A stretch of DNA of 64,000 nt from a virus: positions 1-64,000 of the IMG/VR virus record IMGVR_UViG_3300036791_001355; one strand, written 5' to 3'. A program made the position numbers and the translations under genes. Every line of letters starts with the position of its first letter. Position 1 is the first letter of the stretch. The notes beneath the pieces are model-generated. The model saw only the letters and a list, made by a program, of their open reading frames with translations, searched no databases and was not told the DNA's origin. Of this stretch, positions 4,657 to 11,562 are shown one piece after another.

Positions 4657-7600
4657 TTATCCTACCAATGCCTTGATGTGAGTCCGCGTGCCGTCGTGGT
4701 AGATTTCGTAGACTTCGGTGGAGACCCCATGCGGCAGGATCACTTCCCGCTCGTGGTGGCCGACTTGGCCGGCAATGCCCAGCACCTTCTGCCCCTTCTT
4801 GACGGCAAAGTGCCACCAGACATTCTCGTGCTCCTTGTAGCCGGGTTTCGGGCCGATGGAGGCAGAGGTGAAGCCGGTGCGCATGTAGTGGTAGGTGCCC
4901 ACGCCTTTGCCGAGCGCCTGCCTGATTGCCTTGATCTGGTCGTCGTCCATGTGTTCGCCACGGACCAAGTTGATATCCTGGGTGATCGCCACGTCGGGAT
5001 CACGGAACAGCGCCCGCATGGCATCAATCTTGCCCAAGGCCTCTGGTGTCGCTGACTCATGGCCGCGCTGCACGCCGTTGATTTTTTTGTAACCGCCGCC
5101 GCCGTAGGACTGGATCGCTTCCGCATCCTTGCTGTGGGACACCTTCTGCCAGAACCCTGGCTGGAGTGACGGCACGATGTCGTAGGATTCCTGCGAACTC
5201 GTGCTGGCAGGATTCGCCGCCTCCGCCTCGGTCTTGAGCGCGTAGTGCAGGTCGGGGCTGTCCCTGGCTTGCAGCACCTGGGCGTTGGCGGGCGCCGTCA
5301 GCGAGCCGTGCTTGGCGGTCTTGGGCGCGGCGGCCTTGGCCTTCGCGGCTAGGGTTCCCGGCTTCGGCCCCGCTGGCTTGGGGGCGGGCGCGGCCGGCTT
5401 GGCCGCCGAGGGCGGTGCCTCGCCCTTCAGCGCGGCGATCCACTCCTCGCCGAAGCTCTTGGTGAAAGAGCCGGTCAGCTTGGGGTTATCCAGCACCGCC
5501 TCAATGGCGGTGATCTTCTCTGCGTCTGGCTTATCCGAGGTGGCGGCGGCATAGACCGCCTGCTGGCCCTTGGAACTGGCGTGCGGCTGTGGTCCCAGGA
5601 CCGGCGGCGGCTTGCCCTCGATGTCGGCGATGGCCACCGCCACGGCGTGCTTCTCCGCCGGCTCGGTCATGGTGTTCATCAACTCGCCCAGCGACTTGGT
5701 CGCCGTTGCCTTGGCCTTGGGACCGGCCTCCTTGGCCATGGTGGAAACGAACTTGAGCTTTTCCCCCAGGGACATCTGAGCTTTGACGTAGTTCGGAATC
5801 ATGCCGGCGGCGGTGTCGTCTTCCTGCGCCTTGCTCTGCGGCTTGGTGTCCGCCGGCTTCTTCTCGCCCTTCAGCGCCTCGATCAGCTTGGCGCCGTACT
5901 CCTTGCCCGCCGTCGGCCACGCCTGGGCGTACTGCTCCAGAGTCTTGATCTTCGACGCGAGTGGCGCATCACTGGTAGCGACCTGCAGCATGTTCTTCTG
6001 CACGCTGCTGCCGGGGACCGGCAGCTGCGGTAGTGTGGCCGCCGTGGCCTGCTCGGCCGCCTGGGTCGGGGCGTCGCTGATCGCCGCCAGCAGCTTCTCG
6101 CCGTAGGCCTTGTCCGCCGCATCGGTGGCGTGGGCGATGTCGTGCTTGAGTTGCTTGACCTTGGTCTCCAGCTTCCACTGGCCGAAGGTGGCGGACTCGT
6201 AGAGTTCCTTCTGCGTCGCTCCTTGCGGCTTGGGCACCCCGGACACCGCCAGCAACAGTTGCGCGGCATATTCCTTGTTGCTGGGATCGGTCATCTCGGT
6301 GCCGAGCTTCTTGAGCGCGGCGATCTTTTCCGTCGTGGTGGTCCAGGGATTGACCGCGTAACCAAGCAGATCCTGCTGGCCGTAGCTCTGGTTTAGTGGG
6401 TCCGGCAGTTCCGGCCCGGCGGGTTCGGCTTCCTCGGACGCGGCCTTCGCTGGCTTCTTCTTCTCGCCGGCCGCCATCTCCAGCACGCTTAGCCAATCCT
6501 CGGCGTAGGTCTTGGCGGACGGGTCGACCAGCCCCTGGGCAATGGCATCCTTCAGCCACGCCAGCTGCTGCTCGACGGGCAGATCGCCGCTGACCACGTC
6601 GCTGATTTCGGACTCGCCGTAGGTCTTCTTTTCGGGAGCAGCCTGCGCGACCTCCTTCGGCTTGGCCCCCTGCTGCGCTTCCAGCGCCGCGATCACCGTC
6701 TGGCTGTAGTCCCATGTCGGGCTGGCCTTGTTCAGGGTGCCCTTGGCAACCTGCATATCCACGTAGGTGTTGATCGCGTTGATCTTCCCTTCCACCGTCA
6801 TGCTGGGGTGCTCGGCCAGCCCCTTGATGCTTTTGCCGATGACCGAACCGCCGACCAGCCCGGGCGGGTCCGGTACAACCGGGGCGCCCTTCTCGCCCTT
6901 TAGCTCGGCGAGCTTGCCCTCCACGAACTGCGTGTTGGCTGACCCCAGCGGCTTCTTCAGCAAGCCTTCCAAGTAAGCGACCTTTTTTTCTGCCGACGGC
7001 AGATGGTCGACCTGTTGCGTCACCGCCTTGGCGAAAGTCACGTCGGGACCAGCGCCGAAGATGCCGCCTGCCTCCTTGGCTTCCGGTTCCTCGGGCGGCG
7101 CTTCCGCCTCGGCCGCCATTGCCTCCATCTCGGCTGCGCTCGGCGGCGCCGCCTCGGGCGCACCTCCCTTCTCCTTCTTCTTAGGCTTCCACTTGGTGAA
7201 CGTGGCCTTGCCCAGGCTGCCCGCCCCCAACCCCAGCTGGTTCTCGATGTCGGCCAGCAGCACGTTGGCGTAGTTGGCCCAGGAAGAGGAAGACTTGGTC
7301 GCCGAGTAAGCCTTCACGGCGTCGGCCAGCTGGTTCAGTTCCTGATTGGAAAGAGCCTCGCCCTTCTCCAGCGCCTTCTCGACCACGCCGACGATCTTCT
7401 TGGTCGCCGACGCCGCCCCCAGCGCAGGCGATGACGATGGCGTCACCTTGCCGCCGCCACCACCGCCCGAGGTGAACTGCCCGCCGCCCTCGGCCCCGGC
7501 CGGTACACGCGGATGGTCGGCCTCGCTCCAGGCATCGGCCCGGCGAATGAAGTCCTTGTGCGCCTGCTCCGCCGTCCAGGCGTCCTTCTTGGCCTCGGAC

Positions 7601-9228
7601 AGTCCGGCCCGCTTGGCGATATCGTACTTGCGGGCAATCAGCTTGGCGGCCAGATCGGCCCGCTGCTCCGCCGTGCCCGGCCCCTGGCTCTCCACCAGTT
7701 CGCGGATGGTGTCATCGGGCACCGCCACCACCTTCTTGGCGGACTCGCGCAGCTGCTCCTGGCTCATCGAGCCGTAGATGGCGTGCGCCTGGGTGTTGCT
7801 CGGGCTGCGCAGGCTCTCCCATTCGCCCGCCTCTTTACCGAAGGCGTTGCCCTTGGGACCGCCCTGGGCGCGGAAGATCATCGCCCCGCCCGCGTCCAAG
7901 GTGGTCATGTCGCCGTCAACGAGGCCCTGGTTGTCGTATTCCAGCCCGGCCGCGTCCCAGTTGGCCAGCCACGCATGGGTGGCAAAGTTCTCCTGCGCCG
8001 CCTGCTTCTGCTCGGCGCTGTGGCGGTTGATGTTCTTGACGCCCTCTTTCCACTTGGTGGCGGTGCCGAGCTTGCCGTCGCCGATGTCGATGGGCTCGGC
8101 CGACAGGATCGGCGAGCCCGCCGCCTCGTACAGGCGCGAGGCGAGAAGCTCGTTCTTGGCGTGGGCTAACGACTTGGAATACTTGACATAGTATTTCTGG
8201 CCTTCCGGCGAGGTGAAGCGCCCGCCGGGATTGCTGCCCAGCTGCCCGCCGGTCTTGGTCATGCCCGCCAGCGCCAGTTGCCCGCCCGGCTTCCCGGGAG
8301 CAGCCTGCGCGACCTTCTCCTCCTTGGGCGGGTGGTCGCTCGGAGTCTCGCTCCCGGGCTTGAGAAACTTGGTGACCATCTTGCGGTCAACCGGGGCGTT
8401 GAGGTGGTCCTCCAGTTCCTCGACCGGCGCCAGGGTAACGCTGGAGGCCTCCTCGCCGTGATCCTCGGGCGTGCCGCCCACCCGGCGAGCGAAGTAGTAG
8501 CGGGCGTTGCTGGTGGAGCGCTCGACATCGCCGGCAAAGCCGGTCAGTTCCACCTTCAGCCCGGTTTCCTCGTAGGCCTCCTTGATGGCGGTGGCCCTGA
8601 GCGACAGGCCAGGGTCTTGGGTGCCCTTGGGGAAGGTCGCCTTGTAGCCGCCAAAACCCCGCTTGGGATGCATCACCCAGACGCTGCCGTCGGGCTCCTT
8701 GATGATCACCCCGGCGCCCTGCGCGAAGCCCTCGGGCAGGGGCGGTGGGGGTGGGGCCTCGATCTTGGGGCCGCTGTCGGCCAGCTTCTGCCAGCCACCC
8801 CGGGTCTGCGGCGGTGTCCACGAGGCAAAGGCGACGCCATGCAGAGCCTTGGGCGCGGCACTACCCTTCTTGCCGAAGGTCTGCGACTTCTTGGCAGCCT
8901 TGGGTGCCTCCGGTGCGGCGCCCCCGCCACCAGCGCCTGCGGTGAACTTGCCGCCCTCGTTGCGCGGATGCTCGGCTTCCTTGAAGTCGGAGTCCCCACG
9001 CACCGTCTTCGGTGCGTCTTGCCGCCCCGGCAGCAGGTTGAAGCGCCGGGCCTGGATCAGGTAGTCGATCTGGCGCGAGATGTCGGCCAGCGACTGGGCG
9101 ATATCCTCCAGGCCTGCCTCGTCCCCACGCACCGTCTTCGGTGCGTCCTTGCGCGCGCCATGGCGTACCTGCGGTTCCAGAAAGCGGGCGACGGCGTCAC
9201 GCCATGCCCAGGGAGCGCCGTCGTCCAT
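4657..9228 (-). CDS. Polyvalent head-associated effector: NUDIX + PI3K/HipA-like kinase + helical repeats + C-terminal ADP-ribosyltransferase (VIP2/Alt-like)
   Basis: FPKG...AIKEAYEETGL (Nudix); GSNPGG..YYVK..NELLASRLY..WLANWD..DN..LDAGG (kinase-like); YGGGGYKKIN..LVRG..FTSAS..EREVILP (R-S-E ART); GGAGG SD. Confidence 0.8.
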   Translation of the reverse strand: MDDGAPWAWRDAVARFLEPQVRHGARKDAPKTVRGDEAGLEDIAQSLADISRQIDYLIQARRFNLLPGRQDAPKTVRGDSDFKEAEHPRNEGGKFTAGAGGGGAAPEAPKAAKKSQTFGKKGSAAPKALHGVAFASWTPPQTRGGWQKLADSGPKIEAPPPPPLPEGFAQGAGVIIKEPDGSVWVMHPKRGFGGYKATFPKGTQDPGLSLRATAIKEAYEETGLKVELTGFAGDVERSTSNARYYFARRVGGTPEDHGEEASSVTLAPVEELEDHLNAPVDRKMVTKFLKPGSETPSDHPPKEEKVAQAAPGKPGGQLALAGMTKTGGQLGSNPGGRFTSPEGQKYYVKYSKSLAHAKNELLASRLYEAAGSPILSAEPIDIGDGKLGTATKWKEGVKNINRHSAEQKQAAQENFATHAWLANWDAAGLEYDNQGLVDGDMTTLDAGGAMIFRAQGGPKGNAFGKEAGEWESLRSPSNTQAHAIYGSMSQEQLRESAKKVVAVPDDTIRELVESQGPGTAEQRADLAAKLIARKYDIAKRAGLSEAKKDAWTAEQAHKDFIRRADAWSEADHPRVPAGAEGGGQFTSGGGGGGKVTPSSSPALGAASATKKIVGVVEKALEKGEALSNQELNQLADAVKAYSATKSSSSWANYANVLLADIENQLGLGAGSLGKATFTKWKPKKKEKGGAPEAAPPSAAEMEAMAAEAEAPPEEPEAKEAGGIFGAGPDVTFAKAVTQQVDHLPSAEKKVAYLEGLLKKPLGSANTQFVEGKLAELKGEKGAPVVPDPPGLVGGSVIGKSIKGLAEHPSMTVEGKINAINTYVDMQVAKGTLNKASPTWDYSQTVIAALEAQQGAKPKEVAQAAPEKKTYGESEISDVVSGDLPVEQQLAWLKDAIAQGLVDPSAKTYAEDWLSVLEMAAGEKKKPAKAASEEAEPAGPELPDPLNQSYGQQDLLGYAVNPWTTTTEKIAALKKLGTEMTDPSNKEYAAQLLLAVSGVPKPQGATQKELYESATFGQWKLETKVKQLKHDIAHATDAADKAYGEKLLAAISDAPTQAAEQATAATLPQLPVPGSSVQKNMLQVATSDAPLASKIKTLEQYAQAWPTAGKEYGAKLIEALKGEKKPADTKPQSKAQEDDTAAGMIPNYVKAQMSLGEKLKFVSTMAKEAGPKAKATATKSLGELMNTMTEPAEKHAVAVAIADIEGKPPPVLGPQPHASSKGQQAVYAAATSDKPDAEKITAIEAVLDNPKLTGSFTKSFGEEWIAALKGEAPPSAAKPAAPAPKPAGPKPGTLAAKAKAAAPKTAKHGSLTAPANAQVLQARDSPDLHYALKTEAEAANPASTSSQESYDIVPSLQPGFWQKVSHSKDAEAIQSYGGGGYKKINGVQRGHESATPEALGKIDAMRALFRDPDVAITQDINLVRGEHMDDDQIKAIRQALGKGVGTYHYMRTGFTSASIGPKPGYKEHENVWWHFAVKKGQKVLGIAGQVGHHEREVILPHGVSTEVYEIYHDGTRTHIKALVG
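8992..9147. repeat. 27-bp direct repeat (8992-9018, 9121-9147) with internal hairpin, encoding DAPKTVRGD twice
   Basis: gtccccacgcaccgtcttcggtgcgtc occurs twice; stem ACGCACCG/CGGTGCGT. Confidence 0.85.
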
Positions 9229-9354
9229 TGAGGCCTCCCCTCAGACGCGACTTCGCGTCGTCCATGGCAAATCCAGAAAATTGCCCGAATCGCTCGGCCT
9301 GCGTTATCCTCATGCCCGGTCCCGCAAGGTGCGTGACCACACATGGGGGACGCC

Positions 9355-9690
9355 ATGAACGACCATCCTGACCTGTTCGCCCTGTTCGACCTGCCCGCCG
9401 GCATCGCCCGCCGCGACGAAGGCATGGCGCGGGTTGCCGACCACAACCCGAACTGGACTGCCGAGGCGCTGCGCATCATCGCCACCCTGCCGCGCGGCTG
9501 GACCGGCCTGCCGGAAGACTGGCGCCCGATGGTCGAGGCCCGCATCGGCCCGCCCACCAGTTCCTTTGCCTATGGCCCGCTGACCAAGACCGCCAGACAG
9601 ATCGGCCTCGTCCGCCTGACCGGGCGCCGCCTGCCGATGCGCCGCCGCACCTCCAATGGCCGCATGACCGACGAATACGAGCGCCTCTAG
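9355..9690 (+). CDS. Hypothetical phage protein (possible winged-helix), opposite orientation to head genes
   Basis: MNDHPDLFALF...RRDEGMARV...; GGGGA SD; converges on the MuF stop. Confidence 0.6.
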   Translation: MNDHPDLFALFDLPAGIARRDEGMARVADHNPNWTAEALRIIATLPRGWTGLPEDWRPMVEARIGPPTSSFAYGPLTKTARQIGLVRLTGRRLPMRRRTSNGRMTDEYERL

Positions 9691-11318
9691 GCCTTGGCGC
9701 GTACCAGGGTCAGGGCGTCGTTGCCCGCCGCCGTCAGCATGCTCTCGGGCAACTCACGCAGGTGATAGAGGTAGGTATAATAACACCTACAGTTGTGCGT
9801 AACGATTCCATTGGCTATATACCAGCCGCTACTGGTCTGTAGATTGAACACATGCCCCGTCCAGCGCCGCTGATCGACCTTGATGATGCGCGTCACGCGT
9901 ACGAAGCGGGAGAGAGCATTCTCTCGCTGTCCCGTCGGCTGGGAGCGTCGTGCCGATATCTCACTTACAGCCTGGAACAGGCTGGCGTCACGCTCCGCAA
10001 CGGCAGTGAGGCCAGCGTATTGCGGATGGCCCGCGCAGGTGCCGAGGGCCGCGCCAAGCTGATCGCCGCCGCCCATGCCGCCCGTCGCGGCAGTAAGGCG
10101 TCCGAAGTCGAACTGATCCGCCGCGCCAGCCGCAAGCCCCGCCTGCACGGGTTCGGTGAAGACCACGTGCTCACCGCGCTGCATGCCGTCGGCATTGCCG
10201 CCGAAGCGCAGCGGCCGGTCGGTCCATACAACGTCGATATCGCTTTCGCTGCCGTCGCCGTGGAACTGCTTACGCTGCCCACCGCGCACCTCCGTGACCC
10301 CAAGTTCGAACAGCGCGCCGAATATTTGCGCAATGTTGGTTACTGTGTGGTCTTGGTGACTTTCAGATGGAGATACCCGGATGATCTCACCGGCAACCTC
10401 GATGAGGTCATCGCCTTCTTGCAAGGCGCCAATAGCGACCCAGCCGTCAGGCGTCAGGACTGGATGATTCGGTGTGGCGCGCAGCGTTTTGCCCGTGGCC
10501 GTAATCACCTTGGTCAGCTGACCGCTGTACCAACGCCGGTACGCTACTTCCACACCGTCAGCGAATGGAATCTGCGTCGTGCCGGGTAAGCAGTACACTT
10601 CCTCGCCCGGCTGCGTGATCTGGTCGGTGTAGCCGGCCCGCCCGGCCTTCATCAGGCGCTGCTGCAAGGCCCAGTTGCCCCGGATGGCATAGACCCAGTC
10701 GGCGCCCTTGTAGCGGGCGTCGCGGTCGCGGTGATCGGGCCGGAAATCGTAGTGCACCTGCCTGAAGTGACTGCGCCACAGGGCGGCGATGGCGCCGCCG
10801 TCGGTGGCCAGGATGCTGTTGATCGCCGACACCAGCTTGTGGCCCTGGTCGATCAGCACCCGCCGCTCGCGGAAACTCTGCCCGGCCAGTTCCTTGCGCA
10901 CGTCGTTCTTGGTCTCGACCTTGTCGACCTTGGCGCCGCCGACCGGGATCGAGGTGGCCCAGCCCTGAAAGCGCCGCAGCGTGTCGGCGATGGTCTGCTG
11001 GCGGTTCAGCTTGATGAGGTTGGCCGAGGCCAGGATGCGCCGGTCTAGCTCGGCCCGCAGCTTCGGCTTGACCAGTTCCAGGGTGAAGCGAGAGACGCCC
11101 GGGTGGTGGCGCAGGATCAGGCCCCGGTTGATCAGCCGCTCATAGGTGCCCGCCAACACCCGGCGCAGCTGCTCGTCCAGCACCGCCTCGGAGACCATCT
11201 GCTCCAGCGCCGACTGGCGGATGGTCTCGACCCAGTATTGCAACCGCTCCTCGCTGTCGTAGCCGTGCTCGGCGAGATCGGCGACGGCGGCCGAGACGGT
11301 TTCGAAGAACGTCGCCAT
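9687..11318 (-). CDS. MuF/SPP1 gp7-like head morphogenesis protein interrupted by an intein
   Basis: RRVLIDQGHKL...YDFRPDH...QPGEEVY|intein|CRCYYTYLY; position after portal. Confidence 0.85.
   Translation of the reverse strand: MATFFETVSAAVADLAEHGYDSEERLQYWVETIRQSALEQMVSEAVLDEQLRRVLAGTYERLINRGLILRHHPGVSRFTLELVKPKLRAELDRRILASANLIKLNRQQTIADTLRRFQGWATSIPVGGAKVDKVETKNDVRKELAGQSFRERRVLIDQGHKLVSAINSILATDGGAIAALWRSHFRQVHYDFRPDHRDRDARYKGADWVYAIRGNWALQQRLMKAGRAGYTDQITQPGEEVYCLPGTTQIPFADGVEVAYRRWYSGQLTKVITATGKTLRATPNHPVLTPDGWVAIGALQEGDDLIEVAGEIIRVSPSESHQDHTVTNIAQIFGALFELGVTEVRGGQRKQFHGDGSESDIDVVWTDRPLRFGGNADGMQRGEHVVFTEPVQAGLAAGAADQFDFGRLTAATGGMGGGDQLGAALGTCAGHPQYAGLTAVAERDASLFQAVSEISARRSQPTGQRENALSRFVRVTRIIKVDQRRWTGHVFNLQTSSGWYIANGIVTHNCRCYYTYLYHLRELPESMLTAAGNDALTLVRAKA
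9792..10592 (-). mobile_element. Intein (267 aa) in MuF, lacking an in-frame endonuclease
   Basis: N-terminal CLPGTTQI, block B LRATPNHPVLT, block F/G GHVFNLQTSSGWYIANGIVTHN followed by Cys+1; removal restores EEVY-CRC. Confidence 0.9.
9852..10589 (+). CDS. HTH + Vsr/DUF559-like (PD-(D/E)xK) putative homing endonuclease encoded antisense inside the intein
   Basis: YEAGESILSLSRRLGAS...LEQAGVTLR (HTH); GEDHVLTALHAVGI..Q.PVGPYNVDIAF..VAVEL...R.EYLRNVGYCVVLV (DUF559-like pattern). Confidence 0.7.
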   Translation: MPRPAPLIDLDDARHAYEAGESILSLSRRLGASCRYLTYSLEQAGVTLRNGSEASVLRMARAGAEGRAKLIAAAHAARRGSKASEVELIRRASRKPRLHGFGEDHVLTALHAVGIAAEAQRPVGPYNVDIAFAAVAVELLTLPTAHLRDPKFEQRAEYLRNVGYCVVLVTFRWRYPDDLTGNLDEVIAFLQGANSDPAVRRQDWMIRCGAQRFARGRNHLGQLTAVPTPVRYFHTVSEWNLRRAG

Positions 11319-11319
11319 G

Positions 11320-11562
11320 TCAGGGCGACTTGTCTCGCTTGGTGTCCTTCACCCACCAGCCATTGACGGCCCCACCGCCGCCCTCGTCAGCGAAGTTCTC
11401 CCGGCGGTAGTCGAGCAGGCCCTGGGCGCTGAGACGGTGCAGCTTGGCCCGCGCGGCGCGGGTGTTCCAGCCGAACCGGCGCGCCACCGAGACGGTGGTG
11501 ACCGGGCCGGCGCGGCGGACGAACTCCAGCAGGCTCTCGGTCCAGGCTGGATTGGCGCGCAT
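11320..11562 (-). CDS. Small winged-HTH protein
   Basis: LLEFVRRAGPVTTVSVARRFGWNTRAARAKLHRLSAQGLL. Confidence 0.6.
   Translation of the reverse strand: MRANPAWTESLLEFVRRAGPVTTVSVARRFGWNTRAARAKLHRLSAQGLLDYRRENFADEGGGGAVNGWWVKDTKRDKSP

Follow-up and report, generated by a model that had tools for sequence, protein, structure and literature searches.

Intein in a phage head morphogenesis gene

The window, meaning the whole stretch of DNA analysed here, comprised positions 1 to 64,000 of the virus record IMGVR_UViG_3300036791_001355 in IMG/VR, which is 75.5 kb long in total. The sole sequencing run that matched this DNA was a soil metagenome, which may be its source. The locus of interest consisted of a MuF-like head morphogenesis gene on the minus strand, an in-frame intein within it, and a second open reading frame (ORF) that runs through the intein on the plus strand and encodes a putative homing endonuclease (Table 1). 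The head gene was uninterrupted across all 543 codons. Its product matched PHROG 15127 'head protein' with an E value of 1.8e-42 and PHROG 324 'head morphogenesis' with 2.8e-12, and the Pfam domain Phage_Mu_F (PF04233) was present in relatives of the 543-residue protein. The N-extein by itself gave no match in a Pfam search.

The insert carried the residues of a class-1 intein of 267 amino acids (aa). Cys1 was encoded by tgc at 10592-10590, the TPNH motif occupied residues 40-43, the terminal His266-Asn267 ended at 9792, and the Cys+1 codon tgt followed at 9791-9789. The Pfam model Intein_splicing scored 37.2 bits for the excised intein at a cutoff of 35.8 bits, and 35.0 bits, slightly below that cutoff, for the whole precursor. 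Residues C1, T40, H43 and N267 were invariant in an alignment of 40 homologues. A structure predicted from this alignment with AlphaFold showed a confident Hint module at both ends, with a predicted local distance difference test score (pLDDT) of 84-98 for residues 1-70 and 231-267. In the C-terminal lobe, G246, H247, V248, N250, L251 and N267 were invariant. The model aligned with the Mtu RecA mini-intein over 107 residues (Z 12.5, root-mean-square deviation (rmsd) 1.4), and its top structural matches were exclusively inteins or Hedgehog Hint domains. An intein-free allele was found in the Shewanella phage vB_Sb_QDWS, where a MuF protein of 278 aa reads contiguously through the junction as EEPF-CRCY. 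On motifs, profile and model, the insert was assigned as a class-1 intein with a predicted Hint fold at a conserved site, and it would be expected to splice.

The centre of the intein was different. Residues 134-226 had a pLDDT below 50, and a Pfam search of the sense frame gave no domain besides Intein_splicing, in agreement with a preliminary description of this DNA that had seen no LAGLIDADG or HNH motif there. The same description had taken about 165 aa of the centre to be antisense junk. The predicted disorder was present, and it spanned about 93 aa rather than 165.

An open reading frame on the opposite strand

The plus-strand ORF encoded 245 aa and lay wholly within the intein, in codon-to-codon register with it, so that 245 of the 267 intein codons were covered and both strands were open for 738 nt. 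Both of its ends are complementary to intein codons, the ATG (9852-9854) to that of block-F His247 in GHVFNL and the stop codon TAA (10587-10589) to that of Leu2 (tta). A check of ORFs and translations reproduced the coordinates, Hint motifs, register and stop position given in the preliminary description.

An antisense frame in this register closes only at sense TTA, CTA or TCA codons. Only one of the 286 extein codons in the window is one of these, and an open run of 248 codons would arise by chance with P of about 0.42. For this reason the ORF of the window alone was not beyond chance; the case that it is more than chance rests on its homologues, its predicted fold and the way substitutions are distributed.

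Conservation of both frames in related loci

Searches with tblastn matched the antisense protein in 107 phage records, among them phages of Salmonella, Pseudomonas, Gordonia, Klebsiella, Aggregatibacter and other hosts. Among the matches listed, the positions lay under head, MuF, minor-capsid or unnamed genes. Three records were examined, those of Escherichia phage Snoke, Aaphi23 and Edwardsiella phage MSW-3, and in each the match lay opposite the head gene. These phages are AT-richer, and the antisense ORF was still open in all of them. In none was it annotated, although the Snoke intein was.

A pattern scan of IMG/VR based on the sense alignment recovered 552 stretches encoding a relative. 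A search for related loci with the single antisense protein as query found nothing. The sense frame was stop-free in 64 of 64 distinct related loci with GC (guanine plus cytosine) contents of 0.43-0.68, and in all 64 the antisense register was open for 226-319 of 262-327 codons. The remaining four frames had up to 34 stops each. The chance of such an open run, calculated from the extein codon usage of each locus, went down to 4e-7 in the AT-richest locus. Summed over loci, the log10 probability was -97, a value that assumes independence and is hence overstated, the related loci being phylogenetically non-independent. The closest intein relative was 58% identical. The conserved antisense ORF that the preliminary description had proposed to look for in homologues was found.

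Family and predicted fold of the antisense protein

An exhaustive HMMER search with the antisense protein yielded 1461 cluster representatives at E<=1e-3, of which 750 remained at E<=1e-10. Most family members were 230-300 aa long. The protein of the window scored E 1.8e-61, and its nearest relatives were 49-55% identical. Fifty-eight members were aligned (mean column identity 28%); G20, E103, D129 and E138 were invariant among them and Q120, Y126, N127, V137 and R155 nearly so. The window retained all of them.

AlphaFold predicted the antisense product with a mean pLDDT of 95.6 and a predicted template modelling score (pTM) of 0.80. In the model, a helix-turn-helix (HTH) of three short helices is accompanied by a long helix and a nuclease core of alpha/beta type. 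HTH_58, at 18 bits and below its cutoff, was the only Pfam match of the window protein. Between 12 and 22 of the 58 family members matched HTH_7, HTH_23 or HTH_38, with HTH_7 being the most frequent (22 of 58). For the nuclease core, VIA-align gave Z 11.1 with E. coli Vsr (1cw0; rmsd 2.4, 112 residues aligned), Z 10.1 with the DUF559-like protein 3hrl and Z 9.2 with the homing endonuclease I-Bth0305I (3r3p_A; 94 of 97 residues). Foldseek ranked 3r3p first and 3hrl next. At the profile level, the family matched 3hrl with E 2.7e-6, and the match to I-Bth0305I was marginal (E 0.04). Pfam models of nucleases were reached by relatives, REase_MTES_1575 by 21 of 58 and DUF559 by 4 of 58. Querying PDB sequences with the antisense protein in phmmer gave no match.

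The antisense product is therefore assigned to a real protein family with a predicted Vsr-like nuclease fold, and DNA cleavage would be its expected activity. An HTH followed by a Vsr-like nuclease is what the preliminary description had proposed from pattern alone. Its concern that a degenerate motif (VELLT) might mark a divergent or dead nuclease was not applicable, because VAVE without a following DG is the norm in this family; the E/D/E set was intact.

Selection along the intein

Codons were aligned according to the sense protein, a conservative choice for testing antisense constraint. For intein residues 1-60 and 241-267, diversity peaked at sense position 3 (0.58-0.69, compared to 0.31-0.49 at position 1) and sense residues were more conserved than antisense residues. 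Residues 61-120 had a mixed pattern in the most variable position, with similar conservation on both strands. For residues 121-240, the peak of diversity was at antisense position 3, corresponding to sense position 1 (0.61-0.71 versus 0.46-0.63), and the antisense residues were the better conserved.

Because the most variable codon position flips, the Hint lobes appear to be constrained as sense protein and the centre as antisense protein. In the centre, judged from this pattern, the sense frame is probably required only to stay open. Constraint on the antisense frame over the centre, for which the preliminary description had proposed a test, was visible in both measures, codon position and residue conservation. 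Opposite intein residues 1-60 the antisense residues were poorly conserved, suggesting that the C-terminal tail of the antisense protein may be a passenger.

Start signals, composition and expression

Counting the window, 65 distinct loci were compared, and in 57 of them the codon complementary to the block-F His was a start codon (ATG in 45, GTG in 12). A Shine-Dalgarno core was located 5-16 nt upstream in 35 of the 45 loci with an ATG start. The clearest core, GGAGGTT, is the reverse complement of AAC-CTC-C, which encodes Asn-Leu-Gln in the motif HVYNLQ. In the last 21 intein codons of loci L005-L084, the reverse complement of block F (H-V-Y-N-L-Q) read GGAGGTT, spacer, ATG. Since start codon and Shine-Dalgarno sequence both complement block F, the translation start of the nuclease is written into a splicing motif. 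In the window, the start region read ctgTAGATTgaacacATG, with an in-frame TAG directly upstream.

The 115-aa ORF on the plus strand runs towards the MuF gene. The stop codons of the two overlap at 9687-9690, and the nuclease ORF starts 162 nt downstream. The GC contents of its three codon positions (0.67/0.54/0.90) were as typical for genes of this contig. An overlapping minus-strand ORF (9057-9557) had a composition like non-coding DNA. The 115-aa ORF had no Pfam or PHROG match and no homologue near any related locus, and for the latter reason it was rejected as a conserved driver of the antisense gene. Read-through from it into the nuclease ORF is possible: terminator prediction on the plus strand from 9200 to 10700 found none, and so none between the 115-aa ORF and 9852.

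The AT shift of the first C-extein codons, noticed in the preliminary description, was substantiated. The GC content at third codon positions (GC3) was 0.50 in the first ten codons as opposed to 0.94 in the N-extein (binomial P 1.8e-4). No comparable shift was seen on the N-extein side, and the tract was particular to the window and not a family trait. Within it, at 9776-9781 and 70 nt upstream of the antisense ATG, the plus strand has a perfect TATAAT. CTCACG, with 3/6 matches, was its best partner at -35, and relatives showed no conserved box at this place. One reading of the tract is short co-conversion from a donor of lower GC; another is a TATAAT-bearing promoter for the antisense gene, and no choice is made here between the two. 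The intein as a whole had a GC3 of 0.70 in the window, and values near 0.70 were found in the inteins of all 19 high-GC relatives. Low intein GC3 as proof of recent import was set aside, since dual-coding constraint explains it equally well.

Table 1. Features of the MuF intein locus and of antisense ORFs in three phage genomes (positions refer to the window unless a locus is given).
Feature	Position	Strand	Evidence or remark
MuF-like head morphogenesis gene	9687-11318	-	ORF; 543-aa precursor, 276 aa once spliced
Class-1 intein, 267 aa (precursor residues 243-509)	9792-10592	-	Cys1, TPNH 40-43, His266-Asn267, Cys+1
Hint N-terminal lobe (intein residues 1-70)	10383-10592	-	pLDDT 84-98; sense-strand selection
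Sense-frame linker (intein residues 134-226)	9915-10193	-	Open, as a read-through opposite the antisense gene; pLDDT <50, predicted disordered; no Pfam domain
Hint C-terminal lobe, blocks F and G (intein residues 231-267)	9792-9902	-	pLDDT 94-97
First 10 C-extein codons (CRCYYTYLYH), AT-shifted	9762-9791	-	GC3 0.50
Antisense ORF, 245 aa, HTH and Vsr-like nuclease, putative homing endonuclease	9852-10589	+	ORF, family, AlphaFold
Antisense translation start region	9837-9854	+	ctgTAGATT upstream of ATG; ctGGAGGTT in relatives
HTH module (antisense residues 10-43)	9879-9980	+	Helices 10-18, 23-30, 34-43; invariant G20
Vsr-like / PD-(D/E)xK nuclease core (antisense residues 98-199)	10143-10448	+	Structural and profile matches
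Invariant E/D/E set	E103 10158-10160, D129 10236-10238, E138 10263-10265	+	58-member alignment
115-aa ORF	9343-9690	+	Convergent with MuF, co-oriented with nuclease ORF; possible read-through source
Escherichia phage Snoke antisense ORF, 269 aa	L001 1411-2220	+	Inside head gene; unannotated, intein annotated
Aaphi23 antisense ORF, 338 aa	L002 1195-2211	+	Inside head gene; unannotated
Edwardsiella phage MSW-3 antisense ORF, 299 aa	L003 1342-2241	+	Inside head gene; unannotated

Neighbouring genes

Just downstream of MuF, a minus-strand gene (4657-9228) encoded a protein of 1523 aa with a NUDIX domain in residues 170-287 (E 4.6e-13). Its C-terminus (residues 1360-1511) resembled an ADP-ribosyltransferase exoenzyme with 21.2 bits, slightly below the cutoff of 23.4. 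It looks like a large polyvalent protein that is possibly delivered by the virion. Directly upstream of MuF, an ORF of 80 aa on the minus strand (11320-11562) had weak winged-helix matches to MarR_2, PaaX and HTH_20, all below cutoff. No portal gene preceded MuF in the window, unlike in Snoke or vB_Sb_QDWS.

Proposed mechanism and alternative explanations

The region is most plausibly an intact mobile intein with an antisense endonuclease gene, with a probability of about 0.8. The MuF precursor would be translated straight through the insert from the minus strand, and the ends of the insert would fold as Hint, excise themselves and join EEVY to CRCYY. The middle of about 93 residues would act as an unstructured linker with the sole requirement of lacking a stop codon. 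From the plus strand, the same codons in reverse complement would provide a separate protein of 245 residues that combines an HTH with a Vsr-like nuclease and its E-D-E set. By analogy to I-Bth0305I and other homing endonucleases, this nuclease would, in co-infections, cleave the EE(V/P)(Y/F)-CRCY junction of MuF alleles that lack the intein, and the element would then spread when the break is repaired with the intein-bearing copy as template. Splicing and nuclease expression might be decoupled and differ in timing, and the latter may draw on read-through from the gene at 9343-9690. The preliminary description had read the locus as a bidirectional selfish element, and this was supported: the antisense product had structural matches to nucleases, the antisense frame was free of stops in relatives, and the centre matched no domain in the sense frame.

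Several observations weigh against an active homing element. A Pfam search of the window's own antisense protein reached no nuclease model. Among the 58 family members, neither the general-base His nor the second Asp of the Vsr/EDxHD active site was conserved; the window has H146 and D149 past E138, yet its relatives retain neither. The chemistry of the antisense nuclease may differ for this reason. In overlapped segments, part of the AlphaFold confidence may come from covariation mirrored across the strands; the segments concerned are the C-terminal antisense hairpin 204-238, facing the Hint N-lobe, and sense residues 81-130, facing the nuclease core. By chance alone, the antisense frame of this window would be open with a probability of about 42%. 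The Shine-Dalgarno sequence of most relatives was degenerate (GTAGATT instead of GGAGGTT), and with this ribosome-binding site lost, translation in the window copy may be weak or need upstream read-through. A consensus scan of the plus strand from 9200 to 10700 found no sigma-70 promoter, and the only run matching this DNA was metagenome DNA, with no RNA run listed. Finally, a near-identical intein in a divergent extein was not found, so no recent mobility of the window copy was seen.

These points would suit a copy that is silent or decaying, in which the scarcity of TTA, CTA and TCA codons at such a GC content is all that keeps the ORF intact and the intein has passed to vertical inheritance. 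Such a copy would account for the lost Shine-Dalgarno sequence with the in-frame TAG directly upstream and for the consensus scan without a promoter; the chance probability of 0.42 leaves room for it, and the nearest intein relative is only 58% identical, hence no sign of recent spread. However, a decaying gene is difficult to reconcile with the retention of all invariant and near-invariant family residues, with E 1.8e-61 and 49-55% identity to the nearest relatives, and with a fold predicted at pLDDT 95.6. The AT-shifted tract of ten codons (P 1.8e-4) fits a fairly recent co-conversion, and the relatives L027, L044 and L051 are likewise without a canonical Shine-Dalgarno sequence. A silent copy is considered unlikely, and it is the alternative that survives best.

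It is less probable still that the antisense protein is expressed and has been recruited for a role other than homing. It could exclude competitors by cutting their MuF genes without conversion, or it could be an HTH regulator or a transcription-interference switch that times MuF. The E-D-E set without the conserved His of Vsr and EDxHD, together with the strong HTH module, would be compatible with this, as would the orientation of the antisense gene, which is convergent with a late structural gene so that transcription must collide. Most VSR-type cases seem to be vertically inherited according to a 2025 preprint (bioRxiv 10.1101/2025.01.02.630785). Against such a role, the site strictly inside an intein at a conserved position, the existence of intein-free alleles and the kinship to a proven homing endonuclease are what homing predicts, and no evidence of another function was found.

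The weakest alternative, in which the antisense ORF is a non-coding by-product that mirrors the conservation of a sense domain and is kept open by high GC, can appeal to the frequency of open codon-register antisense frames in GC-rich DNA (P 0.42 in the window) and to the mirroring of antisense AVAVE by sense FHGDG, by which either strand might be the constrained one, but it is already contradicted by a sense centre predicted to be disordered and without a domain opposite a product that folds confidently as a Vsr-like nuclease, by frames that are open in relatives down to 43% GC and also in Aaphi23, Snoke and MSW-3, by a centre that varies more at sense position 1 than 3, and by the conserved start codon and Shine-Dalgarno sequence.

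Within the preferred reading of a mobile intein with an antisense endonuclease gene, the overlap might act as a mutual interlock. The start signals of the nuclease complement block F and its coding sequence extends to within two codons of Cys1, so that neither gene could be freely deleted, moved or mutated without damage to its partner. This idea is tentative and we would not favour it over a simple overlap. If true, it would slow the usual decay of homing endonucleases and could explain why the family persists in hundreds of phage lineages well beyond the actinophages in which it was first reported. Antisense transcription would then necessarily collide with late MuF transcription, forming a built-in timing switch.

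Comparison with known systems

Canonical large inteins such as PI-SceI and PI-PfuI carry an in-frame LAGLIDADG or HNH domain in the same polypeptide. The element described here is similar in that DNA coding for an endonuclease splits Hint at the usual place, and the same selfish-element logic would apply. Because the nuclease is a separate protein encoded on the other strand, splicing and cutting would be performed by different molecules.

The layout is already known from the 2025 preprint (bioRxiv 10.1101/2025.01.02.630785), and the novelty implied in the preliminary description did not hold in this respect. The preprint reports full inteins of actinobacteriophages with a VSR-like endonuclease on the antisense strand, a predicted structure that matches 1CW0 with Z 10.6, an HHpred match to 3R3P and an in-frame region that forms no recognisable structure. 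The same text states that minor capsid proteins carry solely such non-canonical inteins and lists one minor capsid intein for ViaConlectus, APunk and Sampson. In tblastn, the window ORF matched these three Gordonia phages across 90% of its length at 31.3% identity (E 6e-9 to 7e-9), the matches lying under genes labelled hypothetical or minor capsid. Their link to the type described in the preprint was drawn by phage name and by its statement on minor capsid proteins. The likeness comprises a separate antisense ORF inside a contiguous intein, a Vsr-like fold (Z 10.6 there, 11.1 here), an unstructured sense centre and a minor capsid or MuF host gene. The difference is that the window copy resides in a GC-rich phage contig from a soil metagenome, outside PhagesDB, and that the family found here extends well past actinophages, to phages of Salmonella, Pseudomonas, Klebsiella and Aggregatibacter. 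The window element thus adds a member and refinements rather than a new kind. Beyond what the available part of the preprint covers, these are the breadth of the family, the overlap of 245 of 267 codons, the start signals in block F and the strand switch of selection. No new principle is added by this window.

Antisense LAGLIDADG ORFs in inteins, such as that of Synechocystis DnaX and others, were described earlier (Gorbalenya 1998; Gogarten 2002; both as cited in bioRxiv 10.1101/2025.01.02.630785). They are alike in the placement of an endonuclease on the opposite strand of a functional intein and differ in nuclease family and host genes. Dassa et al. 2009 (PMC2677866) described free-standing Vsr-like endonuclease genes between the halves of split inteins ('fractured genes') and noted that no Vsr-like type was known from within an intein. 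Fractured genes share with the window element a Vsr-like nuclease with a separate DNA-binding module, encoded by its own gene and associated with an intein in phage genes. There, the host gene is broken into two ORFs, whereas the sense frame is continuous here and the nuclease lies on the opposite strand. Since the sense frame stays open, cis-splicing is possible. The EDxHD family was defined by Taylor et al. 2011 (PMC3239194), with E170, D196, H213 and D222 forming the motif of I-Bth0305I. This enzyme and the window protein share the Vsr-like catalytic fold, an N-terminal DNA-binding part followed by a C-terminal nuclease, and the conserved first Glu and Asp. I-Bth0305I differs in being located in a group I intron and read from the sense strand. 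The equivalents of its His213 and Asp222 are not conserved in the family of the window protein, which has an additional invariant E138.

The element comprises about 740 bases that are protein-coding on both strands, with selection that visibly changes strand along its length. Gene callers that permit one frame per locus will go on missing the antisense gene, and many inteins described as free of an endonuclease may carry one on the opposite strand. The MuF intein in the Methylococcus capsulatus Bath genome of 2004, reported as one that 'lacks a recognizable endonuclease' (PMC517821), may be another such case.

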